From: Pseudomonadota bacterium
Lineage (GTDB): Bacteria > Bdellovibrionota > FAC87 > UBA2466
Assembly: GCA_043767805.1 (NCBI GenBank)
Contig: JAYUGC010000071.1
Coordinates: 723 to 64,722 of the forward strand
DNA length: 64,000 nt
Direction of reading: 5' to 3'
Shown here one piece after another: positions 22,882-41,755 of this stretch (the first letter of the stretch is position 1; each line of letters begins with the position of its first letter). The translations under genes were made by a program, and so were the position numbers. A model generated the notes under the pieces. The model had not been told where the DNA came from, made no database searches, and worked only from the letters and a program-made list of their open reading frames with translations.

Positions 22882-23526
22882 ATGAAGGGTTTACTGTCCG
22901 TATTGGTTTTGGGTTCACTTGTAGTCGGCACGCAGGCTTTGGCTTTCGGTAACGCGACGACGTTCGATTACCGGCCCGAGGTGGCTCGCCTCACTCGCAG
23001 CCTCGAAATGGGCGGCACGATTCAAGAAGTGCAACGCGCCCTGGACAGCCTTCTCTCGACGGCCATCGCGCATTTGCGGGCACGCGGAAAGAACAAGGAA
23101 GCAGACGACATCGCACTCGAATGGCAGCAGTACCGCCCGCAGCTGGCGCGCCGCAATCTAGGCGATCACGATCCTTTGTTTCCGTGGCTTCGTCGCACTT
23201 ACCAGGTTCTCGAGATCCTCTTGGGCTCTCGCACCATGAAGCAGTATCGCCTGACCGACTTGAACACTTTGAACTTCGCTCTTCCCGTCGTTTTAAATCC
23301 CGAGGGCAAAGGCTGGGATCGCACTGAGTACCGAAAGCACTTCGTGCCGCTCGCGGGCATCACGACGTACTGGAGCACCTTTCTCGGTTGCCGCGCGGTC
23401 ATCGAATGGTCCTTGCTTCAGCGAGTTTGCGGTCCCGCCGCGAGCGCCGCCGGCTGGCTCATGGAAACGACCATTGCTCCCACTCTGAGCGATAAGGTTT
23501 ACGGTCACTTCGCCAAAGGCTTCTAA
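22882..23526 (+). CDS. Hypothetical secreted protein
   Basis: Signal peptide MKGLLSVLVLGSLVVGTQALA; 214-aa helical ORF with a C-terminal Cys pair. Confidence 0.7.
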   Translation: MKGLLSVLVLGSLVVGTQALAFGNATTFDYRPEVARLTRSLEMGGTIQEVQRALDSLLSTAIAHLRARGKNKEADDIALEWQQYRPQLARRNLGDHDPLFPWLRRTYQVLEILLGSRTMKQYRLTDLNTLNFALPVVLNPEGKGWDRTEYRKHFVPLAGITTYWSTFLGCRAVIEWSLLQRVCGPAASAAGWLMETTIAPTLSDKVYGHFAKGF

Positions 23527-24740
23527 AAAGATAGGCCGAAGCCAACGAGTAAGAGGAGCAGGAGAAGAAGACTCCAGCGCTCTCTCGGAAGTAAATCGCA
23601 AGCCGGCATTTCCGCGTTTACTTTGCCTAGAAAGAGAAGCAGGTAGCCGCGGTACATGGTCACGGCCAGTAACCCCATGGCAATCACGCTGAGAGCCGCG
23701 GTAAGCGGTTCCGTCGCGAAGGTCGCCTGGAGCACCAAGTCTTCTCCCAGAAAGCCGAACGTCCCGGGAACGTTCACGGCGCTCAGGCCAAAGATAAAGA
23801 AAAAGGCCGCGATGCCCGGCATGACACGTACCCAGCCGCCGCCTTCGCTCCAACGCTCAAGTCCCGTGCGCTCTTCGACGAGCCAAAGCACGATCCCGAG
23901 ACCTGTCGTCGAGAGCATGGCCGTCACCCAAAGATAGACCGAGCCCATCACACCCAGGTGGCTTGGCATGGCCCAACCGAGAGTCGCCGCGGAAATGAGA
24001 ATCGGATAAAGGAGCCCGAGCCACTTGCGCGGAGATTTTTGCACGACGCCGAGAAACGCAAGATAGAGCGAGGAGATCACCAGCGCACGCACGAGGGTGA
24101 GGCTCGTCTCGGTCAGCGGACAAAGCGGTAGGGCAACTCGCAAGAAGAGCGCGAACGCGCCCGGCGCCGTCAGTAACCCGATACCCAAAGGCAGGGGACT
24201 GTCCTTGAGGAGCGAAAGCGAGCCGGCATGAAAGGGGAACAGGCCGAGCCGCACCCATACGGAAAAAAGAACACAAGTTCCCGCCAGGATCGCGGTACTG
24301 CCGCCCGGCGCCGCGAGTAGCGGCAAGCGGGTAATCAAAAACCACTCGGCGTGCAGGCTTCCCAGGAAGTAGAGCGCCGCCAGTAAACTGAAGGCGCCTA
24401 GGACTTGATAATAAAGGTAGAGACGGTTACGGGCGAGCCATTGCCAGCGATTGCCGGAGCGAGAGACCGCGGCCGGAAAAAGGCCGAGCAGCCAGCAAAG
24501 CCCGACCAGGCGCAAGTCTCCCAAAAAGAGCACGCCCGCATTCATCACTTGAAGAAAGAGCAACGAAAAGACGACCGTCCTGTTTTCCTTACGAGGGGCG
24601 CTGAGCAGAATCAGACAAAAGCAAATCGCTCCGTAAGCTACGCCGAGAAGGGCCGGCCAAGAATTGGGATCCATCGCGGGAAGCGGCCACCAGTAGTAGA
24701 GCGTTGCCAAGAAACCGCCGGCCGAAAAGAGCGCCCTCAT
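23523..24740 (-). CDS. NuoM-like proton-conducting membrane subunit, third gene of the DAB operon
   Basis: RLGLFPFH, PGTFGFLGEDL; translationally coupled to dabB (4-bp overlap). Confidence 0.8.
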   Translation of the reverse strand: MRALFSAGGFLATLYYWWPLPAMDPNSWPALLGVAYGAICFCLILLSAPRKENRTVVFSLLFLQVMNAGVLFLGDLRLVGLCWLLGLFPAAVSRSGNRWQWLARNRLYLYYQVLGAFSLLAALYFLGSLHAEWFLITRLPLLAAPGGSTAILAGTCVLFSVWVRLGLFPFHAGSLSLLKDSPLPLGIGLLTAPGAFALFLRVALPLCPLTETSLTLVRALVISSLYLAFLGVVQKSPRKWLGLLYPILISAATLGWAMPSHLGVMGSVYLWVTAMLSTTGLGIVLWLVEERTGLERWSEGGGWVRVMPGIAAFFFIFGLSAVNVPGTFGFLGEDLVLQATFATEPLTAALSVIAMGLLAVTMYRGYLLLFLGKVNAEMPACDLLPRERWSLLLLLLLLVGFGLSF

Positions 24741-26041
24741 TTTAGGCCTCCTTTCGATTCGTCCCGGGGAGCAAAGCGCGCGAGCCAGCCGTCCTCGACG
24801 CGCTCGAAAAAGACGGCCACTTTCAGTACCGGCCCAACCACCGCCCAGCGTAAAGACTCTTCGAGACTAAAGCCAGCCACCGCCTGACGATAGATCCACG
24901 TCCGAAACGCATCGGGACTCATCCGTTCCCAAAACCGGGGACCCGAAGCGGGGCTCGTGCCGAACAGATTATGATCTTGAAGGAGAGATGGGGCGCGCAA
25001 GAACTGTAAGGTCCTTAGCAGGGCGTGGCCCATCAAATGCCAGATGGCGAGAGTGGTGAGCCCCAAACCGATCTCCGCAAATATTAGGCCGACCTGCGAG
25101 AGGCAAGCAAAGGCCAATTTCGATTTCGCATCAGGGCGAGCCAAGCCGACCGTGGTTCCATAGATCGCCGTCGAAACCCCGATGAGCACGATTAGAAACG
25201 GAACGAGACCCGACGCCTGCCAGACGACTCGCGTGCGTAGTAGCAAATAGGCTCCGGCGTGAATCGACAGGCCTCCGTAAAAAAGCGCGCTCGACGGTGT
25301 CGGGCCTTCCATCGCTTTGGGTAACCACCAGCTGAGCGGGAGCTGCGCGGATTTGGCGAGTGAGGCCACCAGAAGTAAAATCGCGAGGAGCAGCCTCGGC
25401 TCGGGCAAACCTTGCGGAGAAACGTCAAAGCGCGCGGTATCGAACTGCTGATGCCAGGCAACCGTGGCGAGAATCAACGCCACATCGCAAATCCGATAGG
25501 CGATCCAAGCCGTGTAGCCATGTTGAGCCGGCTGATCGCGGTAATGGAAAAAGCCGATGAGGAGCGCCGAGCTAATGCCCACCATCTCCCAGCCCGCCAC
25601 CAATAAATCGATAGTGCCCGCGAGCAAGGTGAGGTTCATCCCGGCGACAAAAAGGAGATAGAGCAAGAAGAAGCGAGAGAAGCCTTCCTCGCGGTGAAGA
25701 TACTGAAACGAGAAAAGCCCACTTGCCGCAGAAAGAATGGTGGTGACGACCAGGATGGGAAAGGAAAGCGCGTCGGCCCTGAAGAGAAACTCGAACTCGT
25801 AGTTTCCGATCTTGAACCAGTGCCCAGGCTCCCACTGAGCCAGGTGTCTGGTGCTAAGCAAGATTTCCCCGCCCACGACGAGAGTCGAGAGGACCAAGGC
25901 GAGGATGACCACGCTGACCACCCCGCGAATTCCCGATTCCTTGAGCTGAAGATTTAGGATCGCGGCGAGCCCCACGAGGACGAACGCGGCGAGAGGCACA
26001 CCCACCAGAGAGAAGAGGCTGACTGCGAGCGAATCGATCAT
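24737..26041 (-). CDS. dabB: DabB/MpsA, NuoL-like subunit of the inorganic carbon pump
   Basis: GWEMVG, AKSAQLP..WLPKAMEGPTPSSAL, HLMGHALLR; coupled to the DUF2309 gene. Confidence 0.85.
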   Translation of the reverse strand: MIDSLAVSLFSLVGVPLAAFVLVGLAAILNLQLKESGIRGVVSVVILALVLSTLVVGGEILLSTRHLAQWEPGHWFKIGNYEFEFLFRADALSFPILVVTTILSAASGLFSFQYLHREEGFSRFFLLYLLFVAGMNLTLLAGTIDLLVAGWEMVGISSALLIGFFHYRDQPAQHGYTAWIAYRICDVALILATVAWHQQFDTARFDVSPQGLPEPRLLLAILLLVASLAKSAQLPLSWWLPKAMEGPTPSSALFYGGLSIHAGAYLLLRTRVVWQASGLVPFLIVLIGVSTAIYGTTVGLARPDAKSKLAFACLSQVGLIFAEIGLGLTTLAIWHLMGHALLRTLQFLRAPSLLQDHNLFGTSPASGPRFWERMSPDAFRTWIYRQAVAGFSLEESLRWAVVGPVLKVAVFFERVEDGWLARFAPRDESKGGLK

Positions 26042-28863
26042 ATCGCCACCCCCGTGACTAGAACGGGCCTCAAGTTATCTCTTTTTCCGACGTAATAGGC
26101 CGGGGAAGCGGAAACTTCGAGCAGGGCCGGGTCTTCCGGATGGTATGGCTGGAATTTCCCACGGTAAAAACGCGCAAGCGCGCCCGTAGTCGGATCGACC
26201 AGGACCAGTTGAATCCAATCGTTTTCAACGGCGCGCCGGATGCCCGCGTGGGCCGCGAGCACCTTTTCCATCTTGAAAAGGTCCGTCTCGACCAGAGTCA
26301 GCAAACGCATGGGCTCGTGGATTTCCACCATTTGCAGGGGCAATCCCGCGCGCAAATCGGAGAACGCGCCGTTGGTCACCCCGATGAGACCGGAGATATT
26401 GTGCGGAAGCTTCGTTCCCGAGCCGTACTCTTCGTTATCGACGTAGGAAAAATAGTACTCGAGGCTGATGCCCGCGCACACCGGCACGACGGCGGAAAGG
26501 CTTCGTAGAAGAATGTCTCCGGTCGGGTCCTGGGCGTTGTCGTAAGAGGTCAAAAACGCCCGGCGATCCAGAAATAGCCCTCGCGTCAGCCGCCGAGGCG
26601 CGATGATGAGCGAAGCATTGCTCGCATGACCGCACTCGGGCCGTGGCTCCCGTAGATCCTGGCAACGGCCCTCCACGTGCTGGAGCGCGAGCGGCGCCGA
26701 AAGATGCCTCGCCGAATCAAAACGGCGGCATCTTTCGTGCGCGTCGAACATGCGCGCGCGATTGAGGACCGTGGTCGCATGCTGGAATGCTTGCGCGTGC
26801 GTTTTGGGTACGGAGGCCTCGTCGAAAAAACGCACCGAGTCCGAGCACGTATCGTGCAGCCCGCCGATGAACCAAGTCGTGACGGGAATAATGATTCCCT
26901 TTTCCTTTATGAGAGCGCGCACCGCGGGAAGATTCGCCATCGCGGCGAACGCGCGCGCGTTCGGGCCGCCTCCCCTGCCTCCACAAGCGCCGCAATCGTA
27001 GGCGGACTTGTGAGGGTTATTGGCGCTACTCGATCCGTGTCCCAGGATGACGACGAGACGGGAGAATTTTTTGGTCAGCCCAAGCTCGCCGAGCACCGCC
27101 TGTACGCGCTCCGCCATGTCGGCCACAGAAAAGCCCGCTTGAATTTGGGCATCGGGCGCCGCGGGAACCGCGGTTTCCAGAGCCAGCCCGGTCTCCATTT
27201 CGGGGAGGAACGTCTCCCGCAAAATCCGTTTCAGCCGGCCGCTGAGCCTCGGAGAATGTAAGCGCAGACCGAGCGGCACGACGGCGAGCACACCGCCCGC
27301 GACACTCATCGCGAGCCCCCCCAAGGGATGGCGCGAGCCGTGATGCACGGTCTTTCGCACCGTTCTGACGAGGTGATGGCGTCCCTTCCCGTCTTTTTGC
27401 GCGGGAGAGCGCGGCGCTTCCGAAATGGCATGCTTCGGACGGACCACCACGGGACAAAGGGGCACGGGGAACGAATCGTAAATTCCCTGGTACCACATAT
27501 CGACCGAGAAAAAGCCGGCGATCGAGAACGTCTCGGCGCGCGGATCGGCCTCTTCGAGATGCCGGCGCAAAGACTCCTCCCGCTCGTCGATACAAGTCAC
27601 CAGCTGAACCGAAGGGCCGTCGGCGGAAACCGCGGTCTTAGGCCGGCGCAGATTGATGGCGACCGCATCGAGCACGCGGCAGCGGTACGTGCGCTCGAAA
27701 GCGCGGTGGAGAAAACGGCGCCGAGGCACGTCCGAGAAAGCGTCGATTTCTTCGAGGAGCGCGTTCAGATCCCCGGCCTCACGAATCAGAGGCGCCGAAA
27801 GGCCCACTTGTTGAAAGAAACGAAACGCCTCGTAAACCCGGTGCAAACTCCCGGGCACGCGGCTGCTTGCCGCAGAAGGCTCCAGGCGGGCTTTGAGGGA
27901 AAGCTTGAGTAGTAGCCGGACCGCTAGAAAGTCGGCGAGCGAAGCGCGCACGGGCTGACTGACCAGATGGGGGCGATGCTCGAGAACCGCCATCATGCCG
28001 GCCCAGCCGGGAAGGCAGAGCAGCTCGCGCACGATGAGCGTTTCCCACTCCGCGCGAGGCACGCCGAGGCGGGACAAGCAGAGCTCGCAGGTTTGGAACG
28101 CGTCCCGGCCGTCGAGCTCTTTCCAATTCCACTGGCGAGGGACCCAACGAAGTCCCTCGGGCAAGAAGACTTCCCCGTCCTCCGCCAAAGCCCGGAACGC
28201 GGCTAGAAATCCCTTGTCGCGATCGGGCATCGCCCAGCGAGAGACGCCTTGGTCGAGAAAGGAGGCCGCGAGACGAATCAAAATGCCATTGAGCTCTCCG
28301 GCCTCGGGCGCGTCGGTTTTTTTCTGAGATCTCGCTTCGAATTTCACTCGCGAGCGCAGGACTTCCCAAAGCGCGGACAAAGCTTCCGCGGGGGTCTTGG
28401 CGCCCGACTCAGAGAGAAAGCGCCGGCGCGCCGGCGCTTCGACTCCCTTTTGAAACTCGGTCGCTTCCTTTTTTTCGCGCAGGAGCCAAGTGATGGTCTC
28501 GTCGGCGAAGGGCCGCGACGCAATGGACAACAAGGCTCGCCACACTTCGGTTTGAGAGAGCCGGCCTCCCAAAAAACGACGCCCCGGCGCGGCGCTTTCC
28601 GCATCTGCCAAAGCTAAGATCTCGTCGAGGTCTTGTTCGCGAATGCGGCCCTGGCCCAATTCCTTGAGGTACCGCTCGTGAGTGAGGTAGGGCTCGGAGC
28701 CCCGCATCTCGGCGGCCCATTCGACCATGTCCTCGAACTTTTTGTCCTCGAACGCGACGAGCGGATTCTGATGAATGAAAACGCCGATGGGCCCTTGTTC
28801 GGGCAATAGGCGAGCGGCTTGTTTGACCGCCCCCTCGATAATGTTTCGCGCTTCGCTGTCCAT
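26038..28863 (-). CDS. dabA: DabA/MpsB (DUF2309) beta-CA-like subunit of the inorganic carbon pump
   Basis: PIGVFIHQNPL, CIDEREESLRRHLE, LGHGSSSANNP, YDCGACGG, LFLDRRAFLTSYD, HEPMRL. Confidence 0.92.
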   Translation of the reverse strand: MDSEARNIIEGAVKQAARLLPEQGPIGVFIHQNPLVAFEDKKFEDMVEWAAEMRGSEPYLTHERYLKELGQGRIREQDLDEILALADAESAAPGRRFLGGRLSQTEVWRALLSIASRPFADETITWLLREKKEATEFQKGVEAPARRRFLSESGAKTPAEALSALWEVLRSRVKFEARSQKKTDAPEAGELNGILIRLAASFLDQGVSRWAMPDRDKGFLAAFRALAEDGEVFLPEGLRWVPRQWNWKELDGRDAFQTCELCLSRLGVPRAEWETLIVRELLCLPGWAGMMAVLEHRPHLVSQPVRASLADFLAVRLLLKLSLKARLEPSAASSRVPGSLHRVYEAFRFFQQVGLSAPLIREAGDLNALLEEIDAFSDVPRRRFLHRAFERTYRCRVLDAVAINLRRPKTAVSADGPSVQLVTCIDEREESLRRHLEEADPRAETFSIAGFFSVDMWYQGIYDSFPVPLCPVVVRPKHAISEAPRSPAQKDGKGRHHLVRTVRKTVHHGSRHPLGGLAMSVAGGVLAVVPLGLRLHSPRLSGRLKRILRETFLPEMETGLALETAVPAAPDAQIQAGFSVADMAERVQAVLGELGLTKKFSRLVVILGHGSSSANNPHKSAYDCGACGGRGGGPNARAFAAMANLPAVRALIKEKGIIIPVTTWFIGGLHDTCSDSVRFFDEASVPKTHAQAFQHATTVLNRARMFDAHERCRRFDSARHLSAPLALQHVEGRCQDLREPRPECGHASNASLIIAPRRLTRGLFLDRRAFLTSYDNAQDPTGDILLRSLSAVVPVCAGISLEYYFSYVDNEEYGSGTKLPHNISGLIGVTNGAFSDLRAGLPLQMVEIHEPMRLLTLVETDLFKMEKVLAAHAGIRRAVENDWIQLVLVDPTTGALARFYRGKFQPYHPEDPALLEVSASPAYYVGKRDNLRPVLVTGVAI

Positions 28864-28902
28864 GTGTCCCCGGATCCGTGTCCAAGCTAGAGCCTAAAGG
28901 GA

Positions 28903-28951
28903 GCTCGCCGCTAAAAAAGCGCCGAGCGAAATCGTCTGACCGAAGTCAGAC
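28903..28951 (-). promoter_or_regulatory. Two tandem hairpins between the RAPP leader ORF and dabA
   Basis: GTCTGAC-TTCG-GTCAGAC (C(UUCG)G loop) covering the leader stop codon, then GCTCGgCGCT-TTTT-AGCGgCGAGC. Confidence 0.6.
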
Positions 28952-29263
28952 CGGCGGAGCCCGGCTCGCCCGGAAAGCGATCTGGAAGCGACTAAAAGAA
29001 ATCAGGCCGCGTGCGGAGGGGGCCCGCCACGACGACTCGGATTCGAGCCGAAACGGGCAAGCGGGCAAAAACCCGTCTTTGCGGCTTTCATCGCGTTCCT
29101 CCAGCTCGCTCGGGACGCTACCGCGAGACTCGCCGAGCTGTCTAAAGGAGCCACGCTCCTGCGAAAGCGGCTTGGAAAGCACTCGATTGCCCGTACGAGG
29201 GAGCGCGGCGTCAGCGCCGGTCAAAAGGAGGGCAAAAATGAGAAGCCAGGGGCCGTACTTCAT
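28946..29263 (-). CDS. Putative leader/arrest peptide with signal peptide and C-terminal RAPP motif
   Basis: MKYGPWLLIFALLLTGADA...FRASRAPPV*; 105 aa; ends 82 nt upstream of dabA on the same strand. Confidence 0.7.
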   Translation of the reverse strand: MKYGPWLLIFALLLTGADAALPRTGNRVLSKPLSQERGSFRQLGESRGSVPSELEERDESRKDGFLPACPFRLESESSWRAPSARGLISFSRFQIAFRASRAPPV

Positions 29264-29273
29264 AAGAGGCTCT

Positions 29274-29302
29274 AGGTTACCCCTCCCCGCTTTCTTACTC
29301 AA
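29274..29302 (-). promoter_or_regulatory. Sigma70-type promoter for leader-dabAB
   Basis: TTGAGT-17 bp-TAACCT ending 10 nt before ATG 29263. Confidence 0.55.
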
Positions 29303-29400
29303 TGCGCTATTTCCCGATTTCGCAAACGGGCTCCCTGCCGCCAGTTGCCCAACGCTTCATTTCAGGGAAAACTGCCCGGATGCACGATTCCCGGGGCGAG

Positions 29401-32642: not shown

Positions 32643-32656
32643 CTTGTTTCTAGGTC

Positions 32657-33964: not shown

Positions 33965-34090
33965 TCAGTTGGCGATCCGAAGCCGATCGCGCAGCGCCAT
34001 GGTAGGTTTTTCGATGAGGACGTGAATGAGGTAAGCGACGAGAAACGAGACCACCAGAACGAGCGGCGTATAAATCATCCAGATGAGGCA
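33965..34090 (-). pseudogene. C-terminal remnant of an acyltransferase-3 family gene
   Basis: VVSFLVAYLIHVLIEKPTMALRDRL resembles the Acyl_transf_3 C-terminal 'IEKP' motif; the rest of the gene is absent. Confidence 0.5.
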
Positions 34091-34269
34091 GGAGATCGAC
34101 TCTTTCGCCGCACCAGCAAGTCGAAGTGGTTCGGCCGTCCGGTCGAAGGCGTCGGCATCAGCGAAATCTACTGCCAGAAAACGGATTGGGGTATTTGGGG
34201 CAAGGGCCACAAATGTTTCGTTCGCGGCGTCACGGTGAGCGATTCCAACGCTCCGTTCTCCATCGTCAA

Positions 34270-35415
34270 CTAACGGCCGGTCGCCGCCCGAATGGCGTCG
34301 TCGAGCTTTTGCTGCGCGGCTTTGTTGAGCTTTGCTAGAGACCCAAAAAGCTCAGGAGTGCAGGCGTCCGCGGGTAAGAGCGCCCTCAGAAAAGCTTCGT
34401 CTTCTCTCGGGGTAATCACGATGTCCTTCAGCTGCCAGCTATTTCGCCGTTTGGCGTTCCATTCATAGAACCCTTTGGCGAAGGCTTCCACGGAGCCCAA
34501 CAGAACCTTGGCGTCGCGGTCGCCGTGTATCGCGCCGGGAAATGTCTGGTGCTCCGTAAAGCCAAAGCTGAGTAGCTGGCGAATCACCTGAGGATTATCC
34601 GACTCGGCCACGAATCGCTTCGGAGTCACCAGGACTGGGCCCGTTCCCAAGTCGAGCCACTGCCCCTCCTCGAAACGAGCGACCGACAAGGCGCCCTGTT
34701 CTTGCGCGGCATGAAAAAGAATGGCCGACAGATCGATGTCACCGCGGGGCACGGCCGAATAATGCTTTAGCTCGATGGTATCACCGGCAAAGACCCGCGC
34801 GTTTTGAATGTCGATGAAATACGGCTCGAGATTGCGATAGCTGTAGATCTTGATGCGATTACTGGTGACTCGCTCGTAGCCGTCATCCGGCAACGGCTTG
34901 AGCTTGTCTTTGAATTGCGTCTGCACGGGGAGCAGCGGAACCGAGAGACTGGGCTTGGCCAACCGAAGCAGAGCCAAGATTTTCGAAAAGTCATTGGGGT
35001 CCGAAAGCACCACGATGGTGTTACGTCCGAGAAAGAGCGAATGATCCCGAGTTAAGCTCTCTACGAACTCCGGCGTCAGGGGCGTGCCCGTGCTCTCGGA
35101 CAGATGCCGAGCGTACCAATCCTGCACCTCGAGCATCAGCCGGCGGCGTACCCGATGCCGGTTCTGTTCGTCCTGGAAGGTGAACTTCGTGCCGCGGACG
35201 TCGGGGGTGTGAAACTCGTAGTCTTGGGTCTCGAACACAGTTAGCGCAAGCTTGGTGGGCGGCCCCGCTTTAGAGGGAACTTCCACTTCGGAAAAGCTCA
35301 CCGGCTTTCTGAGAATGTCGCGGCGGCTGCCGGGTTCGGCGTGCGCCACGGGAGGGAGCCAGAGGAAGACCCCGAGGAGTAGTAAGCCTAAATGTAGGGG
35401 CCAACGAGACAGCAT
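34270..35415 (-). CDS. Hypothetical secreted protein
   Basis: Signal peptide (LHLGLLLLGVFLWLPPVAHA); about 381 aa. Confidence 0.7.
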   Translation of the reverse strand: MLSRWPLHLGLLLLGVFLWLPPVAHAEPGSRRDILRKPVSFSEVEVPSKAGPPTKLALTVFETQDYEFHTPDVRGTKFTFQDEQNRHRVRRRLMLEVQDWYARHLSESTGTPLTPEFVESLTRDHSLFLGRNTIVVLSDPNDFSKILALLRLAKPSLSVPLLPVQTQFKDKLKPLPDDGYERVTSNRIKIYSYRNLEPYFIDIQNARVFAGDTIELKHYSAVPRGDIDLSAILFHAAQEQGALSVARFEEGQWLDLGTGPVLVTPKRFVAESDNPQVIRQLLSFGFTEHQTFPGAIHGDRDAKVLLGSVEAFAKGFYEWNAKRRNSWQLKDIVITPREDEAFLRALLPADACTPELFGSLAKLNKAAQQKLDDAIRAATGR

Positions 35416-35687
35416 TTCATATCCAGCATCGACCCCCCCCAACTCATCATGATACCTGCCCGAAAAGGCGAAACCTACGAGCACCCGAAGTATACGAATT
35501 TAGGCGCGGCAAGCCGGTTAGTTTTTCGGGGACCAGGCACACCTTGGGATATATTAAAAATATATTTCGGTCTCATTCCTTATATCTTTTTAATAGGAAC
35601 GGAACCGCCCAAACCGTTATTCATCACCGCGCGTCAAACAACTTGTTTCGGCCTTCTCACTCTCTCAACCCTTTTCTTGGAGTTTTT

Positions 35688-36155
35688 ATGAAGTCGTTCC
35701 TGACCTTGTCCCTTTGCCTTTTCGCCCTCCTGGGTTCCAGCGCTCACGCGCAAGAAGCGCAAAACCCCGTCGAGCCCACGGATGACGTCTACATGCCGTC
35801 CGATTGCGCGGCCCCGACCGATACCTTCAACGTGAAGAGCGGCGGCGATAAAGCCATCGGGAAGAAAGCCAACGCCATCGCGTACGCCTTGGCGTCCCAA
35901 GCCTGGGCCGACCTCAAGAAGGACGAGAGCCTCGACGGCTCGAAAGTCGTCGGCGTGCATCTCTCTTCCACGAAAAAGGGCTATCAAATCGGCGTAAGCC
36001 TCACCGAGTCCCAGCTCAGCTTCGGCTCCCAGGGCGGCACGCAGAACACGCCCCAGACGGCCCTCCTCGAAGTCGAAGTCGATTCCCAGGGTAAGCTCGG
36101 CAAAGTGACTGGCTACTTCGCCCGTGCTTACGCCTCGCCTTCGTTCATTCACTAA
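35688..36155 (+). CDS. Small secreted protein
   Basis: GGAG RBS, MKSFLTLSLCLFALLGSSAHA signal peptide, strongly biased codon usage, followed by a hairpin. Confidence 0.8.
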   Translation: MKSFLTLSLCLFALLGSSAHAQEAQNPVEPTDDVYMPSDCAAPTDTFNVKSGGDKAIGKKANAIAYALASQAWADLKKDESLDGSKVVGVHLSSTKKGYQIGVSLTESQLSFGSQGGTQNTPQTALLEVEVDSQGKLGKVTGYFARAYASPSFIH

Positions 36156-36163
36156 TTCCCTTC

Positions 36164-36200
36164 TCGGGCCTCCGCCTTCTCCCGGCGGAGGCCCGAAATT
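36164..36200 (+). terminator. Terminator-like hairpin
   Basis: TCGGGCCTCCGCC-loop-GGCGGAGGCCCGA, 13-bp perfect stem. Confidence 0.65.
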
Positions 36201-36244
36201 GTCTCTAGAAGTAGCACTGGCCTCTTTGCTATTAACAGGCACCC

Positions 36245-37597
36245 ATGTCGCTCTCACTTTCGCTGTTTAAACGAGTCGGATTTTGCGTCGCCGTTCTGGT
36301 GACGTTTTTTGTCTTGGGTTGCAAGGGACCGGCCGCGGCCACGCCACAAGGCACGCCCGACACTCCGTCCGCCACCGAGCCCGGTAGTAAACCCGGCGGC
36401 AGTCAGGGATGGGAAAGCAGCGGAGGCGACGGCGTCGCCTGCTTCGACTCGCAAGCCACCGCGCAAGAAGCGCAGGCGCTCTTAGACTCCGGCAAAGGAC
36501 TCACCCAGGAGCTTCGCGAAAAGGTGCAGACCCTCGTCACTCTCGAGTACTGGGAGAACCACGAGAAGGTGAAGTTCGCCAATGAGTTCCTGGTCGCCGA
36601 AGGGATGAACGACGAGTCCGCCATCCTGAACGTCGTCACCACGACGCTCAAACGCTATTCCCCGCTCTTCTACTCGAAGTTCGTATCGGTCCAGACGAGA
36701 ATGGAACCGACCCAATGGGGCGATGACAAAGCGCTGCCCGACGTGCGCGACTCGAAACCGGTCACGCCCATCGAAACCGCCGATGCAAAATGCCGGCTCA
36801 TTCAGCTCGCCGTTCGCTACACCCGCTCCACTCCCGGAAAGATTCCCGAAGTGCGCGTGGATTTCGACGGCTGGCTTTATGCGCATAAGTTGGACGCGCT
36901 CAATCGCGTGATCCTGCAGAGCCACGAGATTTTCTATCTGATCGCCAAAGAAGGCGGCCACCCGGACTCGCAAGCCGTGCGCCCCCTCGTCGTAACTCTT
37001 CTCAACATGGATTTTCAGATCGCGCTGATGCGATTCGGGAACTCCAAAGCGATCGATCTCGTCCAGAACGCAATTGGGAGCGTGTACGGAGACTACTACC
37101 GCTTCTTCGTGAACGATGCTTCGAACCTCCCAGCGGTCGCCGTGCCTCCGGGACCGCATCAGTACAGCCGCTACAAGAGCTTTGGCAGCGCCATTGCTCC
37201 CCTCAGGGCGCGCAAGGGAAAGTGCCTCACGGAGAAGAAGTTCGACGATGCAAAACCCGAAGAGCGCCAGGCTCTCTTGCAGACTTGCGCCGACTTCGCG
37301 ATGAGCCCTAATTACATCAACGACGCCTTCAATGACGAAGAGTCTTTCGTCTTCGTGGCGCGCTACTTCATCGATCGCCTTCCCAACGTCATCGACAACA
37401 GCGAGTCGTTTCTGGTTTGGGAAAAAGAGCACCCCGAAGCGACTAGCCCCTATATCTGGCAGCAATTGGCCCGCGCCTGCGAGGTAATTCCCGGCTTCAA
37501 ACGCCAGTACCTGGGGAAGCTGTTTGATAAGGCCGAGGGCTATTGCAAATCGCTCCCGCTGCCTGCGGTCGACCGCTCCATCATGGAACGCTTCTAG
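36245..37597 (+). CDS. Hypothetical lipoprotein
   Basis: Lipobox VLGC, P/T/G linker, SGGDGVAC and SHEIFY motifs. Confidence 0.75.
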   Translation: MSLSLSLFKRVGFCVAVLVTFFVLGCKGPAAATPQGTPDTPSATEPGSKPGGSQGWESSGGDGVACFDSQATAQEAQALLDSGKGLTQELREKVQTLVTLEYWENHEKVKFANEFLVAEGMNDESAILNVVTTTLKRYSPLFYSKFVSVQTRMEPTQWGDDKALPDVRDSKPVTPIETADAKCRLIQLAVRYTRSTPGKIPEVRVDFDGWLYAHKLDALNRVILQSHEIFYLIAKEGGHPDSQAVRPLVVTLLNMDFQIALMRFGNSKAIDLVQNAIGSVYGDYYRFFVNDASNLPAVAVPPGPHQYSRYKSFGSAIAPLRARKGKCLTEKKFDDAKPEERQALLQTCADFAMSPNYINDAFNDEESFVFVARYFIDRLPNVIDNSESFLVWEKEHPEATSPYIWQQLARACEVIPGFKRQYLGKLFDKAEGYCKSLPLPAVDRSIMERF

Positions 37598-37622
37598 CCC
37601 CCGGCCAAAAGACAAGCCTTCC

Positions 37623-37934
37623 TCAAGGAAGGTTCAAGGGAGTGCGGCCCGCGCGAATGAACAACGCTCCGATCCCACCTAGAGGTAGCGCGCTCACCAG
37701 CCCCAAAAATCCTACGATGGCGCCCCACCCTTCCTCGCCCGTTCCGCCGTCGCCAAAACCAAAGCTGTAAATCCCCCAAAGCCCGCCCGCGACCGCGAGA
37801 AAGCAAAACAAGTAACCGACGAGCGTAAAGCGCCGGCCCCGCACTTCGGTATCGGCCACCACGAGCCACGCCAAAGCGAACATGAGGCAAGTGCCGAGCA
37901 CACCGAACGCAAAAAGCGCTTTCATTTTTCCCAT
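37623..37934 (-). CDS. Small three-TM membrane protein
   Basis: Three hydrophobic segments; starts directly after the FkbM stop. Confidence 0.55.
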   Translation of the reverse strand: MGKMKALFAFGVLGTCLMFALAWLVVADTEVRGRRFTLVGYLFCFLAVAGGLWGIYSFGFGDGGTGEEGWGAIVGFLGLVSALPLGGIGALFIRAGRTPLNLP

Positions 37935-37938
37935 AAGA

Positions 37939-38778
37939 TCATCCGACCGGGTTGAATCCCGAAGCGCCGGGCCCAATTTCCCGCGTAGGGCCGAGAGAAG
38001 CCCAAAGCGCATCGAGACCCGGCAAGCGATAGATCCAGTGGCCGTCGTTCAAGTGGGACAGGCGATAACCTGCCTCGCGCAGCAGCCCATCGATTTGAAT
38101 CGCGGGCTCTTCTCCGACGATATGCGGATGGAACTCGCAGAAAATATAATCGGCGGCGCGCCGGGCAAGCAGCTCGCCGGCTCCCAAAACGATCGGAAGC
38201 TCGGCGCCTTCGCAATCGAGCTTCAGAAAGCGCACGCGCTCGATTCCGTGTGCCCGAAGCACGCTATCGAGAGTTTGAGAGAGCACGGTCTCCTCCGCGC
38301 CACCGAAACGGGATTTCTTAAACTGATTGGTGGAGCCCGTATTCGTGTCCGGAGTCAGGTGAAGCGTCGTCTTCCCTTCGGACTGCGCTAACGCAAGCGG
38401 AAGGACGGTGACGTTACGGCAAGCGTTCAAGTTCAGGTTTTCCTGAATGATCGGCTGAAGCCGGGTTTGCGGCTCGACGCAAAGCACTTTGCCCTTGCCC
38501 ACGAGCCGGCTCGCCACCACGGAGAAGTAACCCTCGTTGGCGCCCACATCGACGAAGCAATCCCCAGGTCTAAGCAAGAGACCCAGCAGATGAGTCAGCT
38601 CGATCTCGTAAACGCCGTCATCCAAGACATCGCCGCCAAACTCCGATACCGGATCGATCCAAAGTGTGTCGCCGAACGTCGTCTTGGCGACGCGGCGCTT
38701 GACGCCGAGGATCTTCTTCAACAATACCGCAAGGGACGAAGGGCGAATCCGGCGCAGAGTACGATGCAGAGAAGGCAC
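37939..38778 (-). CDS. FkbM family methyltransferase
   Basis: FVDVGANEGYF, VEPQ, LKLDCEGAE. Confidence 0.9.
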   Translation of the reverse strand: MPSLHRTLRRIRPSSLAVLLKKILGVKRRVAKTTFGDTLWIDPVSEFGGDVLDDGVYEIELTHLLGLLLRPGDCFVDVGANEGYFSVVASRLVGKGKVLCVEPQTRLQPIIQENLNLNACRNVTVLPLALAQSEGKTTLHLTPDTNTGSTNQFKKSRFGGAEETVLSQTLDSVLRAHGIERVRFLKLDCEGAELPIVLGAGELLARRAADYIFCEFHPHIVGEEPAIQIDGLLREAGYRLSHLNDGHWIYRLPGLDALWASLGPTREIGPGASGFNPVG

Positions 38779-38981
38779 AAAGGAGACAGTAACTTAACTC
38801 GCGCCAAGGCTCAATCAAACGAGAAGCGTGACAAAAGGCGCGTTACATCCGTCTACCTCCCCCGAGGCAGCCTTCCTCGAGGAAGCATCGAAGCTGTCAA
38901 ATTTTTGACCAATTTTTTACCCTTTCGTGCTATGAGCCCTGTTATTATTTCTTACTGAGTCTTTTGAGCCTAGTGAAGCCA

Positions 38982-39332
38982 ATGCGCCTGAGACGAAATT
39001 CCAACTGCTTCTTGATAGTCCTCTCCTTTCTCTCGGTGTTCTTACTCGGGGATGCGCTTTCGTTCAGCCTGGCGCCCACACCGGCGGATAACGCCGACCG
39101 GGTGCTCGCCTCCTCTCCCGAATCCCCTTCTCAATTTCCGCTTCTCTACTGTGATGCCTCCGAAGCGTCCGACTGTTCGGATTCTATTCTGGACGACGGC
39201 CCGATCGACATGGCCTTGAGCTCTTTCGAATGGAGCCCGTCCGTCCAGCTAAGCTGGCCCGCGCGGGCTCCCTCGGTGATCTCACCCACGGCTGATCTGG
39301 GCCTCATCCACAAACCTCCGGAACTTTCCTAG
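38982..39332 (+). CDS. Putative leader peptide with signal/TM segment and C-terminal HKPP motif
   Basis: MRLRRNSNCFLIVLSFLSVFLLG...acidic Ser/Asp linker...LGLIHKPPELS*; directly upstream of sulP-can. Confidence 0.6.
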   Translation: MRLRRNSNCFLIVLSFLSVFLLGDALSFSLAPTPADNADRVLASSPESPSQFPLLYCDASEASDCSDSILDDGPIDMALSSFEWSPSVQLSWPARAPSVISPTADLGLIHKPPELS

Positions 39333-39452
39333 CGTTCCCGCGCCTAGAACGGTGGATTCCTCCGGTTTTTTCGGCCTGGAATCGCCACTCTCTGTCCCGG
39401 CTCGTTCGCGCGAGCTGATTGGCTGCCGACTTATGACTTTGGTGAAAAACAG

Positions 39453-41102
39453 ATGCGAAAAGTGAACACGAAGATAAAGCTAAAACGCTTTTCCAGCTCC
39501 CCCCTGCTTAAATCCGCCCGTCCGAATCGGCGGGCCACGCGCCTCATGCGGGTCTATTGGGAACGAAACCTCCTGAAGAATTTCCGTTACGATTTCTCGG
39601 CGTCCATCGTCGTGTTTCTCGTAGCTCTGCCGCTGTGCCTAGGGATCGCCTTGGCCTCGGACGCGCCTCTATTTTCGGGCGTCATTACCGGCATCATCGC
39701 GGGCATGATCGTGGCCTTACTCTCGGGCTCCGAGCTGAGTATCAGTGGGCCGGCGGCGGGCCTCACGGTGATTGTCGCGAGCGGTATCAAATCCGTGGGC
39801 GGGTTCGATGCTTTTCTAGTCGCCGTGGTTCTGGCGGGCGTCTTCCAGTTTATTCTGGGGCTCGTCCGGGCGGGGTCCATCGCGAGCTTATTCCCCTTAA
39901 GCGTAATCAAGGGAATGCTCGTCGCCATCGGCATCACCATCATCCTGAAGCAGATCCCCCATGCGTTAGGAGCCGCGGGAGGCTTTGAGAGCGACATGGA
40001 ATTTCTTTCCTGGCTCGGCAAAGACACGGCCGTGCATCACTTCGCGGCGACTCTCGTCTCTTTCAAAGGCTCTGTGGTGATGATCTCCCTATCGAGCCTC
40101 GCGCTCCTGAGGCTGTGGGACTCGCCGCAGGTCAAGAAGAGCCCCGTGCTCGCCAAGATCCCGGGTCCTTTGCTTGCCGTTCTCTTCGGATCTCTGCTGA
40201 ACGAAATCTTTCAAGTGGGTTTTCCGCATCTCGCGCTCCAAGCGGCCGACGGGCACCTAGTGCAACTCCCTCTGCTTAGTTCGCCGCTCGCCATCTTGAA
40301 CGAGCTGCGCTTTCCCGCGTTTGCGGCCATCAAGAATCAGAACGTTTGGGTTCTCGCCATGACCTTGGCCGCGGTCGGCAGCATCGAGACGTTGCTGTGT
40401 CTCGAATCGACCGACCGTATCGATCCGCAGAAACGCGTCTCAAACCCGAACCGAGAGCTTCTGGCGCAAGGAACCGGCAATATTCTCGCGGGCCTCATCG
40501 GCGGCATTCCGATGACCTCCGTCATCGTGAGAAGCTCGGCGAATATTTACGCCGGGGCCCGCACCCGTATCTCGGGCTTTCTTCATGGCGCCATTCTCCT
40601 TCTCTCGGTGCTGGCGTTACCCTGGTTCTTGAACCACATCCCGCTCGGTTCTTTGGCGGCCATTCTCATCATGGTCGGCTATAAGCTCGCGAGCCCGGCC
40701 CTCTTCAAGAAGATGTGGCAGGGCGGATTGGACCAGTTCATCCCGTTCGCCGTCACGATTGCCGCCATCCTCGCGCTCGACCTGCTGAAAGGCGTGTTGA
40801 TTGGAACCATTTGCGGGCTGATCTTCGTGCTCCGGGCGGGGTACTCGTCGGCCCTTCTAGTGGTGACCGAAGGCAACGACGTTCTCTTTCGCTTCACCAA
40901 GGACGTGACTTTCATTCACAAGGTGAAGCTCCGCAAAGAGCTCGCGTCAATCGAGCCGGGATCGAACGTCATTTTCAACGCGACTCGCGCGACCTACATC
41001 GACAACGACATCATCCAAATGCTGTCCGAGTTTCAGGAGACCGCGGGAAGCCGCGAGCTCCACGTCGAAATGGAAAACGTATTTCAAAAGAAACGGCACT
41101 AA
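39453..41102 (+). CDS. SulP/SLC26 anion transporter, probably bicarbonate
   Basis: VFLVALPLCLGIALAS, ISGPAAGL, NRELLAQG, SVIVRSS, short STAS-like tail; adjacent to carbonic anhydrase; start may be 39546. Confidence 0.92.
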   Translation: MRKVNTKIKLKRFSSSPLLKSARPNRRATRLMRVYWERNLLKNFRYDFSASIVVFLVALPLCLGIALASDAPLFSGVITGIIAGMIVALLSGSELSISGPAAGLTVIVASGIKSVGGFDAFLVAVVLAGVFQFILGLVRAGSIASLFPLSVIKGMLVAIGITIILKQIPHALGAAGGFESDMEFLSWLGKDTAVHHFAATLVSFKGSVVMISLSSLALLRLWDSPQVKKSPVLAKIPGPLLAVLFGSLLNEIFQVGFPHLALQAADGHLVQLPLLSSPLAILNELRFPAFAAIKNQNVWVLAMTLAAVGSIETLLCLESTDRIDPQKRVSNPNRELLAQGTGNILAGLIGGIPMTSVIVRSSANIYAGARTRISGFLHGAILLLSVLALPWFLNHIPLGSLAAILIMVGYKLASPALFKKMWQGGLDQFIPFAVTIAAILALDLLKGVLIGTICGLIFVLRAGYSSALLVVTEGNDVLFRFTKDVTFIHKVKLRKELASIEPGSNVIFNATRATYIDNDIIQMLSEFQETAGSRELHVEMENVFQKKRH

Positions 41103-41128
41103 CACTTTTTACTTTCTAGGAGAAATCC

Positions 41129-41755
41129 ATGGAACCTACTACCAAGCTACTGCTAAACAACAAAGCGTGGGCCCACGAAAAGACCAAGCTCAATCCGAAC
41201 TACTTCAAGGAGCTGTCCAAGGATCAGCAGCCTGAGTTTCTGTGGGTGGGTTGTTCCGATAGCCGCGTTCCCGCCGAGGAAGTCACCGGAACGGAAGCCG
41301 GCCAAATTTTCGTGCATAGAAACATCGCGAACCTCGTCATTCACGCCGACTTCAATTTCCTGAGCGTCCTTCTGTATGCCGTGCAAAATCTGAAGGTCAA
41401 ACACATCATCATTTGCGGTCATTACGGTTGCGGCGGCGTTCGCGCCGCGCTCTCTCGGGAAAACTTCGGCCCCCTCAATAAGTGGATTCACTACATCAAA
41501 GAAGTGGCCCACAAGCACGCGGGCGAGCTCAATGGCCTTAACGACGAAAACGTCTTCAAAAGAATGATCGAATTGAACGTCGAAGAGCAGGTGAAGAACC
41601 TCTCGCGTACGGCGACCATCCAGCGCGCGTGGAAAGAGACGGATGGACCGATGATTCACGGCTGGGTCTTCAATATGGAAGACGGTCTCATCACCTCGCG
41701 GGTAACGATGGGACCAAACTCTCCCGTCGACGCTCCGTTTAAGTTCAGGCTGTAG
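41129..41755 (+). CDS. can: Beta-class carbonic anhydrase
   Basis: WVGCSDSRVP, FVHRNIAN, CGHYGCGG zinc ligands; AGGAG RBS. Confidence 0.95.
   Translation: MEPTTKLLLNNKAWAHEKTKLNPNYFKELSKDQQPEFLWVGCSDSRVPAEEVTGTEAGQIFVHRNIANLVIHADFNFLSVLLYAVQNLKVKHIIICGHYGCGGVRAALSRENFGPLNKWIHYIKEVAHKHAGELNGLNDENVFKRMIELNVEEQVKNLSRTATIQRAWKETDGPMIHGWVFNMEDGLITSRVTMGPNSPVDAPFKFRL

Follow-up and report, generated by a model that had tools for sequence, protein, structure and literature searches.

Proline-ended leader ORFs ahead of carbon-uptake operons: candidate Sec-targeted arrest peptides with a common geometry

In the window, which is the whole 64,000-nucleotide stretch of DNA analysed here, two carbon-uptake operons are each headed by a short open reading frame (ORF) that ends in a proline pair, which raises the question of whether these ORFs are leaders that control the genes behind them. 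To our knowledge, the regulation of DAB pumps and SulP/carbonic-anhydrase systems in heterotrophic bacteria is largely unknown. Here, we examined the two ORFs, their relatives in other genomes and the arrest peptides that they resemble.

The leader ORFs and their operons

The initial annotation had described a signal-segment leader ORF ending in a PP motif at the start of both operons, and every element was found in place (Table 1). DabA (PF10070) adjoins a Proton_antipo_M subunit (PF00361, E 2.8e-32), as expected of a DAB complex. The two SulP proteins of the genome fall short of the BicA equivalog NF050096 (120 bits against a cut-off of 880), and bicarbonate would be their substrate going by linkage to carbonic anhydrase or dabA only.

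Table 1. Features of the two carbon-uptake loci in the window
Feature	Position	Strand	Remarks
nuoM-like second antiporter-like subunit, 405 aa	23523-24740	minus	Proton_antipo_M; 4-nt overlap with dabB-like
dabB-like, NuoL-type membrane subunit, 434 aa	24737-26041	minus	Proton_antipo_M; 4-nt overlap with dabA
dabA, 941 aa	26038-28863	minus	Pfam DabA PF10070, E 3.6e-225
Candidate Shine-Dalgarno (SD) of dabA, GGGGA	28867-28871	minus	possible
Second ORF1 spacer hairpin, GCUCGGCGCU-U5-AGCGGCGAGC	28903-28927	minus	RNA folding
Hairpin GUCUGAC-UUCG-GUCAGAC at ORF1 end	28934-28951	minus	in MFE and centroid structures
RAPP codons of ORF1, cgg gct ccg ccg	28952-28963	minus	presumed arrest site
Acidic cluster of ORF1, residues 45-59	29087-29131	minus	44-58 residues before P-site Pro
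Signal-peptide-like N-terminus of ORF1, MKYGPWLLIFALLLTGADAALP	29198-29263	minus	11-residue hydropathy 2.6
Leader ORF1, 105 aa from ATG 29263	28946-29263	minus	ends ...FRASRAPPV-stop
Leader ORF2, 116 aa from ATG 38982	38982-39332	plus	ends ...LGLIHKPPELS-stop
Acidic cluster of ORF2, residues 58-72	39153-39197	plus	40-54 residues before P-site Pro
HKPP codons of ORF2	39309-39320	plus	inside IHKPPEL block
Branched hairpin from second Pro codon of ORF2	39318-39371	plus	then U6 at 39366-39371; weakly terminator-like
sulP family transporter, 549 aa	39453-41102	plus	Pfam Sulfate_transp
Beta-carbonic anhydrase (beta-CA, can), 208 aa	41129-41755	plus	Pfam Pro_CA

ORF1 lies 82 nt upstream of dabA with a single residue between PP and stop, and ORF2 lies 120 nt upstream of sulP-can with three. 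Genes of exactly 105 aa for ORF1, in a protein collection, and of 116 aa for ORF2 are on record, and in-frame TTG codons at 29302 and 38964 would lengthen them to 118 and 122 aa, respectively. Signal peptides were assigned by hydropathy alone, and the best 11-residue Kyte-Doolittle mean of the ORF2 N-terminus was 2.9; the middle part of both ORFs is Ser/acidic.

A third leader was found on another contig, C66, where a paralogue of ORF1 (E 4e-7) of 111 aa, ending PRAPPRLA-stop, heads the only other sulP gene of the genome across a 58-nt spacer. Since in relatives the orthologue of this sulP (60-62% identity) stands before dabA, an ancestral leader-sulP-dabA operon appears to have been split, with each half keeping its leader. 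In all three leaders the hydrophobic 11-mers score 2.3-2.9 and fall at residues 5-22. A profile of ORF1 and its paralogue did not retrieve ORF2; the two ORFs, between which no obvious similarity had been noted initially, are thus not detectably similar. No family in Rfam, Pfam or NCBIfam accounts for the leader regions.

The hairpins that had been noted ahead of the structural genes are present in both spacers. At ORF1, a 7-bp stem with a UUCG loop takes in the last sense codon (Val) and the stop codon, and the spacer folded with a z-score of -2.06 (5 of 200 shuffles folded equally well). The ORF2 hairpin region, in contrast, folded no better than its shuffles (z +0.88); a terminator scan made no call on this hairpin and its U6, and the U-tract is not kept as a conserved feature in the same-genus orthologue.

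Motif, recurrence and geometry of the leaders

A proline pair near the stop codon is common by itself, being present in the last six residues of 1,474 of the 49,312 open frames of the genome (3.0%), and RAPP in the last eight residues is rare (26 of 49,312). The whole design, defined as PP near the stop, a hydrophobic segment 75-115 aa upstream and an acidic cluster, was found in 13 of 23,005 open frames, all three leaders among them. When R[AG]PP or HKPP close to the stop was required along with a hydrophobic segment, 3 of 26,679 ORFs genome-wide qualified, two of them ORF1 and ORF2, with the C66 copy slightly below the hydropathy cut-off. Moreover, among the 2,691 ORFs of 300 aa or more in this genome, RAPP (13 observed against 25.4 expected, ratio 0.51) and RGPP (5 against 21.7, ratio 0.23) were depleted and HKPP occurred once against 4.0 expected; AAPP was not depleted (observed/expected 1.16).

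The codons of the motif were then compared between related leaders. The same-genus orthologue of ORF2 (genome G001) ends RIHKPPELA-stop and shares with ORF2 only IHKPPEL, while the neighbouring sulP proteins are 75% identical, and the codons of this block differ at four synonymous places (CAC/CAT, CCG/CCC, GAA/GAG, CTT/CTC). Similarly, the RAPP codons of the C66 paralogue, cgc gct ccc cca, carry three synonymous differences from ORF1 in four codons. Synonymous changes within codons of a conserved motif point to selection on the leader motif at the protein level.

We further asked how often such leaders occur elsewhere. Leader-like ORFs precede dab at 6 of 10 assessable loci of the same order and sulP-can at 3 of 13 assessable loci. 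At phylum level they were found at 8 of 40 loci, with 8 of 35 upstream ORFs qualifying against 7 of 705 in the background (p 6e-8). Across phyla, an R[AG]PP ORF was present at 7 of 72 loci against 11 of 6,302 background ORFs, and the full architecture in 6 of 86 upstream frames against 5 of 4,898 (Fisher p 1e-8), in loci from Planctomycetota, Acidobacteriota and Myxococcota. The endings enriched before carbon-uptake genes are RAPP, RGPP and xPP(P), by 30-70 fold over background in tests that count related genomes as independent. The leaders stand before dabA, sulP-dabA or sulP-can, in four phyla in all, in genomes whose GC spans 36 to 71%. The reverse count is large as well: 64 of 72 cross-phylum dab loci and 32 of 40 phylum loci are without any leader-like ORF, so that a leader is one regulatory option rather than a rule. 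The outcome named at the outset as fatal to the idea, that the uORFs are absent or the PP unconserved at orthologous loci, was checked across genomes and the opposite was seen.

What the leaders keep in common is limited to their geometry and the C-terminal motif (RAPP, RGPP or R-I/L-H...PP). Measured in 19 leaders, the distance from the hydrophobic core to the P-site Pro is 83-106 residues (mean 94.6, sd 7.9). Acidic residues (D/E) make up a fraction of 0.29 in the stretch 40-49 residues before this Pro and of 0.24 in the stretch 50-59 residues before it, compared with 0.02-0.13 elsewhere. This acidic enrichment was matched in none of 5,000 circular-shift permutations, and nine further leaders repeated the pattern of core and cluster. 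The ORFs exist, recur and keep their motif and geometry. With the PP motif kept in the ORF2 orthologue, RAPP kept in the ORF1 paralogue and enrichment in four phyla, the proposal that they are arrest-type leaders gains support, and the pattern suggests, at the level of sequence, that a stalling nascent peptide exerts control over carbon uptake.

The motifs themselves are not uniform. As a rule, EF-P resolves the pauses at ordinary PP sites. HKPP in ORF2 and the xPPP, SPP and GPP of many relatives lie outside the published arrest cores, which counts against stalling.

A force-released stall and its alternatives

From this pattern we infer stalling, the direction of its effect and its signal, as follows. 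The leaders would be translated ahead of dabA-dabB (ORF1), the dab-type sulP (C66) and sulP-can (ORF2), and the signal peptide would direct the nascent chain to the SecYEG translocon. Peptide-bond formation would stall at RAPP (ORF1, C66) or IHKPP (ORF2), 1-3 codons before the stop, and the stalled ribosome, covering the leader end and the start of the spacer, would favour operon expression, either by keeping the spacer RNA open, as for CutF, or by blocking transcription termination, as for CruR. The pulling force of translocation on the chain would end the stall and lower expression. Given that about 45 residues from the peptidyl-transferase centre corresponds to the translocon position in the chain (PMC7886326), and that membrane potential is reported to pull acidic stretches hard enough to release SecM arrest (PMC6028853, citing Ismail 2015), we propose a voltage or pH force because the acidic cluster is in every case found 40-59 residues away from the stall, approximately at translocon entry. 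Membrane potential acting on the cluster, or periplasmic pH acting on its charge, would set the force, and the leaders would thereby signal to the carbon-uptake genes how energised the membrane is or what the external pH is. We consider it probable, with some reservation, that ORF1, the C66 paralogue and ORF2 are such cis-acting, Sec-targeted arrest-peptide leaders, with membrane potential or periplasmic pH setting the force; what a cell would gain by tying carbon uptake to membrane potential is conjecture.

No coupling model, unmasking of the ribosome-binding site included, was consistently supported by RNA folding. At 15 loci, the SD and start codon had a mean pairing of 0.55 when free and 0.56 with the stalled footprint masked, and the SD pairs with the Pro codons at only 3 of the 15 loci (G025, G026, G028). 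A C>G bias of the rut type was not seen in the spacers (14 of 28 loci), and a terminator scan of the spacers called none.

An arrest peptide of this kind might instead respond to a ligand or condition in the periplasm (bicarbonate/CO2, Ca2+ or another cation, or a metal) whose effect on folding or retention of the chain alters the pulling force. Copper acts in this way on CutF and CruR, described as exported or membrane-directed leaders with C-terminal proline motifs and stalling that responds to periplasmic Cu (PMC9973294, PMC9426467), the genes downstream here handle an extracellular substrate, and cations could bind the acidic cluster. However, the mature parts hold no conserved Cys/His pattern, the two Cys of ORF2 are both missing from its orthologue in G001, and 20 leaders compared with Pfam and NCBIfam matched no family, including DUF2946 at E<=0.1. 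Charge and distance are conserved while sequence is not, which is more in keeping with a physical signal than with a binding site, and ligand sensing seems to us unlikely. The Zn sensing suggested in the initial annotation lacks support because the mature part has no conserved Cys or His. Stalling might also serve no sensing role, and tether the polycistronic mRNA at the membrane or pace translation for SulP/DabB insertion. Polytopic membrane proteins are encoded downstream, the constant distance from signal peptide to stall suits tethering, and in the phylum set the leaders are commoner before sulP-first operons (5 of 8) than before dabA-first operons (3 of 30); yet the first downstream gene of the dab operon in the window encodes soluble DabA, the conserved acidic cluster would be left unexplained, and stops 1-11 residues past the stall site with spacers of 32-247 nt in the leader set look like regulatory leaders. 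We regard this explanation as improbable.

That the ORFs encode small secreted or membrane-anchored proteins acting in trans, for example as a periplasmic accessory subunit with an incidental proline motif, would agree with their being called as genes, bearing export signals and being syntenic with transporters in several phyla. It is made highly improbable by mature parts that cannot be aligned even inside the genus, where the neighbouring sulP is so well kept, and by the fact that a search of 5.8 billion proteins with ORF1 and ORF2 matched only the query itself and a leader profile search of 1.84 billion representatives added one relative to the input sequences; moreover, the sole conserved residues are a motif that proteomes avoid (PMC12992588). 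Chance open frames with coincidental PP endings would be expected at times in intergenic DNA as GC-rich as that here (56-62%), given how common PP endings are in the genome and that the ORF2 spacer folds like its shuffles. Against chance stand the synonymous substitutions, the recurrence of the design at genome GC of 36-45%, the enrichment and the fixed geometry, and we find it scarcely credible.

A stronger form of the arrest-leader reading, which we put forward tentatively and think doubtful, is that the leaders form a class of their own, gauging voltage or pH through the nascent chain, with fixed distances of the signal peptide (~95 residues) and the acidic cluster (~50 residues) from an arrest site of the RAPP, RGPP or R-I/L-H...PP type. 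Negative charge inside the SecYEG channel at the moment of stalling would be what is read, and stall duration would set the production level of the DAB pumps and SulP/carbonic-anhydrase systems. If true, carbon acquisition would for the first time be placed under arrest-peptide control, in at least four phyla, and R-I/L-H...PP would be a so far undescribed arrest sequence. Our literature search found no paper linking RAPP-class arrest leaders to carbon uptake. The finding offers a concrete candidate cis-regulatory element before DAB/SulP-CA genes in Verrucomicrobiota-type genomes, Planctomycetota, Acidobacteriota and Myxococcota. For the arrest-peptide field it would provide a new physiological target, a collection of about 29 natural leaders whose shared geometry can be measured and, in R-I/L-H followed by PP, a candidate second motif. 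The acidic cluster at translocon distance suggests a source of the releasing force, which for arrest peptides outside the secretion pathway is posed as an open question in PMC12992588.

Comparison with known arrest peptides

The closest known system is that of the RAPP/RGPP arrest peptides including ApdA and ApdP (Fujiwara et al., EMBO J 2025, PMC12992588; Sakiyama 2021; Morici 2024). RAPP and RGPP are demonstrated arrest motifs (PMC10951233; PMC12992588), reported to be EF-P-resistant, under-represented in proteomes and enriched towards the C-terminal end of small secretory proteins encoded upstream of other genes (PMC12992588). Common to those peptides and the present leaders are a small ORF (<300 aa; here 105, 111 and 116 aa), an N-terminal localisation signal (here a hydrophobic segment by hydropathy), R-A/G-P-P near the stop, a variable N-terminal part and a close downstream gene on the same strand. 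ORF1, the C66 copy and 13 relatives fit this pattern; ORF2 (HKPPELS-stop) lacks the R-A/G-P-P core, and it and many relatives differ in having HKPP, xPPP or SPP. The downstream genes differ too: those in the main text of PMC12992588 are Sec, TonB receptors, YcnI, PCuAC, PepSY, DsbA/thioredoxin and ECF sigma factors, and the words SulP, bicarbonate, carbonic, DUF2309 and transporter do not occur in that main text, while here they are DabA/DabB, SulP and carbonic anhydrase. The fixed acidic cluster is likewise not mentioned in the paper's sections on RAPP/RGPP.

CruR of Bordetella pertussis (Roy et al., mBio 2022, PMC9426467) is, like the present leaders, a uORF with a C-terminal RAPP at the head of an uptake operon for an extracellular substrate. 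Its arrest is described as holding the operon on, with release allowing termination between gene 1 and gene 2 (PMC9426467). CruR belongs to the DUF2946 proteins and carries a CXXC copper motif, whereas the leaders here have no family match or conserved Cys, and a C>G bias is absent from their spacers. CutF of Rhodobacter capsulatus (Ozturk et al., mBio 2023, PMC9973294) shares Sec export, a C-terminal proline-rich motif and a stem-loop before the next gene, and couples downstream translation to co-translational export (PMC9973294). Unlike the present loci, it senses Cu via CxxxC and neighbours metal-homeostasis genes (PMC9973294), and CutF-like shielding of the ribosome-binding site was predicted here at only 3 of 15 loci. 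Membership in the CutF/CruR DUF2946 metal-sensing class was ruled out by 0 of 20 DUF2946 matches and Cys that are unconserved between ORF2 of this genome (G000) and its G001 orthologue.

The class that monitors Sec/YidC (SecM, VemP, MifM, ApdA, ApdP) was ruled out by the downstream DabA, Proton_antipo_M, SulP and Pro_CA. The likeness to SecM, VemP and MifM lies in an export-dependent, force-released arrest near the leader C-terminus, on the same transcript as the regulated gene. Those leaders regulate by feedback the very Sec/YidC machinery that acts on them, whereas the genes that the present leaders would regulate lie outside the export machinery.

Leader ORFs of the carbon-uptake loci

A small ORF precedes each of the two carbon-uptake operons, and the initial annotation described the positions, design and PP endings of these ORFs, and the operons themselves, accurately (Table). 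Both N-termini are basic, followed by a hydrophobic segment and then a Ser/acidic stretch. A promoter scan found no promoter-like sites in either leader region of the window, a terminator scan called none in the ORF1-dabA or ORF2-sulP spacer, a look-up of sequencing runs gave no RNA run containing the region, and the contigs of one DNA run showed no sequence variants (identical low-coverage pieces only). No dedicated transcription factor adjoins either operon of the window, and dabA, dabB and the NuoM-like gene overlap by 4 nt at each junction. The membrane part of DAB is formed here by two separate antiporter-like genes, whose products show no similarity by BLASTP (best E 0.34); the NuoL-like protein covers NuoL profiles only up to about position 350. 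Divergent from ORF1 lies a gene for a SprT-like/DUF2786/DUF7168 protein, whose annotated start adjoins ORF1's upstream TTG, and genes for a PAS histidine kinase and a sodium:dicarboxylate symporter lie between the two operons.

Positions of leaders, carbon-uptake genes and neighbouring features (window coordinates unless a contig of the genome, G000, or a fetched locus, L-number, is named)
Feature	Position	Strand	Remarks
ORF1	from ATG 29263	minus	105 aa; 82 nt before dabA; C-terminus ...FSRFQIAFRASRAPPV, then stop
ORF2	from ATG 38982	plus	116 aa; 120 nt before sulP; C-terminus ...ADLGLIHKPPELS, then stop
ORF1 paralogue	G000:C66:10731-11066	minus	111 aa; C-terminus ...SFSRLRLTLRSPRAPPRLA, then stop
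C66 leader with sulP	G000:C66:9008-11066 (L035:4009-6067)	minus	
dabA	26038-28863	minus	Pfam DabA, E 3.6e-225
NuoL-like dabB	24737-26041	minus	434 aa
NuoM-like gene	23523-24740	minus	405 aa
DAB membrane part	23523-26041	minus	
sulP	39453-41102	plus	
beta-carbonic anhydrase	41129-41755	plus	
R/L-I/L-H leaders	39303-39320; L132, L040, L041, L161, L167, L175, L196		
SprT-like/DUF2786/DUF7168 protein	29302-30525	plus	
PAS histidine kinase	31035-32642		
Sodium:dicarboxylate symporter	32657-33925	minus	
111-aa ORF on contig C123	G000:C123:8961-9296	plus	

PP no more than 6 residues from the stop is common among the open frames of this genome (1,474 of 49,312, 3.0%); RAPP among the last 8 residues is rare (26 of 49,312). 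A hydrophobic segment combined with R[AG]PP or HKPP close to the stop was found in three of 26,679 ORFs (45-260 aa), among them ORF1 and ORF2, and the full design in 13 of 23,005 open frames, including ORF1, ORF2 and a further copy on contig C66. The 111-aa ORF on C123 has a hydrophobic segment midway along its sequence and RAPP 12 residues before its stop; it lies 159 nt before a 464-aa gene with a signal-like start and is a possible further leader of this type.

The C66 leader (E 4e-7, 36% identity) is the sole ORF1 paralogue in the genome and lies 58 nt before the only other sulP found there. The C66 SulP shares 60-62% identity with the SulP encoded directly before dabA in relatives, and only 32-33% with the SulP of the window. 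Since the C66 sulP is the orthologue of the gene preceding dabA in relatives, where the usual order is leader-sulP-dabA, an ancestral operon of this order appears, from the comparison of sequences, to have been broken up between two contigs, its leader being duplicated, so that all three loci found with DabA, SulP or the carbonic anhydrase of the window as query (3/3) are headed by a leader. The RAPP codons of ORF1 and its paralogue show three synonymous differences.

Recurrence in relatives and other phyla

Similarity searches returned very few relatives of these peptides. The protein collection records genes whose lengths are exactly those of ORF1 and ORF2 (105 and 116 aa), without relatives there; searches in 40 related genomes gave nothing below E 0.01, the only match being the paralogue in the leaders' own genome, and a search of 5.8 billion proteins with ORF1 and ORF2 returned the query itself only. 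Searched with a profile, 1.84 billion representatives yielded four proteins, namely the query, the leader of one relative's genome (G010), a new relative of 115 aa ending SSSRAPPRVA, and a 974-aa protein that is a spurious match. None of 20 leaders matched any Pfam or NCBIfam family, DUF2946 included, and Rfam gave no match at E<=1 across 23000-42500.

The initial annotation had named the absence of such ORFs, or of a conserved PP, from orthologous loci as evidence against its proposal. From the same order, 15 dab loci were fetched; 13 of them gave a DabA ORF, and 3 of the 13 end at a contig edge. A leader was found in six of the ten assessable loci and none in the other four. These six leaders have 101-122 aa, an N-terminal hydrophobic segment and a C-terminal proline motif, and lie 34-87 nt before sulP-dabA or dabA, ending in GSRAPPRLG, SNRAPPSI or SNRAPPSL (RAPP type) and in SGLSPPLSI, HLPPPALAHLL or LGLPPPHRVS (others). 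Among sulP-can loci, a leader was found in 3 of 13 assessable, ending in SRIHKPPELA (the 111-aa orthologue from the same genus), SHRGPPLAEALFHL and SPRAPPFSC. In the same-genus pair the SulPs are 75% identical, yet the leaders can be aligned only over IHKPPEL, which is kept despite four synonymous codon differences (CAC/CAT, CCG/CCC, GAA/GAG, CTT/CTC); this points to selection on the encoded peptide rather than on RNA or DNA.

That same-genus genome (G001) has no DabA match at E<=1e-20, and its contig C13 (L132, L147) carries two sulP-can pairs ~6 kb apart, with SulPs 75% and 60% identical to that of the window; the IHKPPEL leader occurs only at the closer (75%) pair. At a dab locus of another relative (L044, genome G013), a 162-aa ORF (starting MSISSFTATVHFMLSQTVEYALRS) that looks like a transcription regulator, as far as its sequence suggests, precedes the dabA leader on the same strand.

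Of the 401 genomes of the phylum set, 77 gave a DabA match; 60 loci were fetched, 58 had a DabA hit, and 40 were usable. A leader-like ORF was present in 8 of the 40, distributed by operon type as 5/8 sulP-first, 3/30 dabA-first and 0/2 dabB-first. The cross-phylum set comprised the best 80 DabA loci, one genome per species, with the DabA ORF in 79 and at least 450 nt of upstream sequence in 72. Seven of these 72 have an R[AG]PP-ending ORF (<=16 residues from the stop) directly before dabA or sulP-dabA, all seven with a hydrophobic segment; by record label they come from Planctomycetota, Bryobacterales (Acidobacteriota) and Polyangia (Myxococcota). Of the 6,302 background ORFs of these loci, 11 have the motif and 1 has the motif with a hydrophobic segment. 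Enrichment of leaders upstream of dabA or sulP-dabA was found in both sets, with 8/35 upstream ORFs versus 7/705 background ORFs in the phylum set (p 6e-8) and, for the full architecture with any PP, 6/86 upstream frames versus 5/4,898 elsewhere in the cross-phylum set (Fisher p 1e-8), and these p-values overstate the case because related genomes are counted as independent. Against this kinship, the leaders are mutually unalignable and their host genomes range from 36 to 71% GC. Most dab loci have no leader of this kind.

Many acidobacterial loci have instead a conserved gene of ~118 aa (starting MSDALRRFKSEIFQGLA), with a 4-nt overlap between its stop and the start of dabA; its product looks like a small winged-helix regulator, a putative assignment, and the gene is present in L064, L070, L085, L088, L096, L108, L114 and others of the cross-phylum loci.

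Conserved motif and geometry

Compared by sequence, the leaders share only a C-terminal motif and a geometry. Fifteen, counting the new database relative (P0004), end in RAPP or RGPP, and the others mostly in xPPP, SPP or GPP. In nine non-RAPP leaders the PP is preceded at a distance of 1-8 residues by a His, mostly within R-I/L-H, as in LIHKPP, RIHKPP, RLHLPPP, RLHSGLSPP, RIHLLNIPPP, RIHSMYSNIPPP, RIHCKYSNIPPP and LIHGIGNGPP. This recurrent R/L-I/L-H ahead of Pro-Pro could be a second arrest motif; the long ORFs of the genome contain a single HKPP, where 4.0 are expected. One to 11 residues (median 3) follow the PP.

Across 19 leaders, the hydrophobic segment is centred 83-106 residues ahead of the first Pro (mean 94.6, sd 7.9), and the D/E fraction is 0.29 at 40-49 and 0.24 at 50-59 residues before it, compared with 0.02-0.13 in the other bins. 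This acidic cluster was equalled by none of 5,000 circular-shift permutations (n=18, one near-duplicate dropped). The nine leaders of the phylum set, which were picked without a distance criterion, show the same geometry, with the hydrophobic centre at 83-96 residues in all and the acidic centre at 39-67 in eight.

Possible mechanism and known arrest peptides

The leaders are rather likely to be translated, export-targeted peptides that stall shortly before the stop codon and affect the operon in cis, because of their motif, synteny, duplication after the operon split, substitution pattern and geometry. The arrest-peptide-type control proposed initially is in this respect supported by motif, recurrence, enrichment and geometry; stalling, the direction of its effect and its trigger are predictions. 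How a stall would reach the next gene was sought in the RNA. The last sense codon and the stop of ORF1 lie inside a predicted 7-bp UUCG hairpin, and in its MFE fold the dabA GGGGA pairs with leader codons just 5' of and inside the footprint (z -2.06); in three relatives the Pro codons are predicted to pair directly with the downstream Shine-Dalgarno sequence. Unmasking of the ribosome-binding site showed no consistent effect over 15 loci, in which masking the footprint did not lower the predicted pairing (0.55 free, 0.56 masked). The ORF2 hairpin with U6 is not kept in the same-genus orthologue, and a rut-like composition test found no C>G bias of the spacers (C>G in 14/28 loci).

As to the signal, residues ~45 from the peptidyl-transferase centre are described as reaching SecYEG (PMC7886326), so in a stalled ribosome the acidic cluster 40-59 residues back would sit at the translocon. 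Membrane potential is reported to pull acidic stretches hard enough to release SecM arrest (PMC6028853). Given both, the leaders might gauge membrane potential or external pH, a proposal that we hold as tentative and somewhat doubtful. The main alternative, ligand-dependent sensing in the periplasm, is slightly less probable. Zn, which had been listed with pH, PMF and bicarbonate as a possible signal, was rejected, as the leaders have no conserved Cys or His.

Experiments have established RAPP and RGPP as arrest cores that stall the peptidyl-transferase centre and resist EF-P; proteomes exclude them, and they are concentrated close to the C-terminus in small secretory or membrane proteins encoded upstream of other genes (PMC10951233, PMC12992588). 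In the genome studied here both are likewise depleted in long ORFs (observed/expected 0.51 and 0.23). The uORFs described in PMC12992588 (2025) precede genes of diverse function, among which it names Sec, TonB receptors, YcnI, PCuAC, PepSY, DsbA/thioredoxin and sigma factors. The words SulP, bicarbonate, carbonic, DUF2309, transporter, anion and permease are absent from its main text, and its figure lists or appendix, or the supplements of PMC9973294, may include SulP or DUF2309 among downstream genes. Full-text literature searches found no paper joining arrest peptides with bicarbonate transporters, or a leader peptide with DabA-DabB. The kind of element is thus already known, and these searches gave no published case of its attachment to carbon uptake. 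In the accounts of the characterized leaders, RAPP arrest in CruR can hold an operon on by preventing Rho termination (PMC9426467), and in CutF, a leader exported by Sec, the proline-rich end opens a stem-loop shielding the ribosome-binding site of the next gene (PMC9973294). By comparison with these, the leaders of the carbon-uptake operons would be secretory arrest-peptide leaders, possibly with new features.
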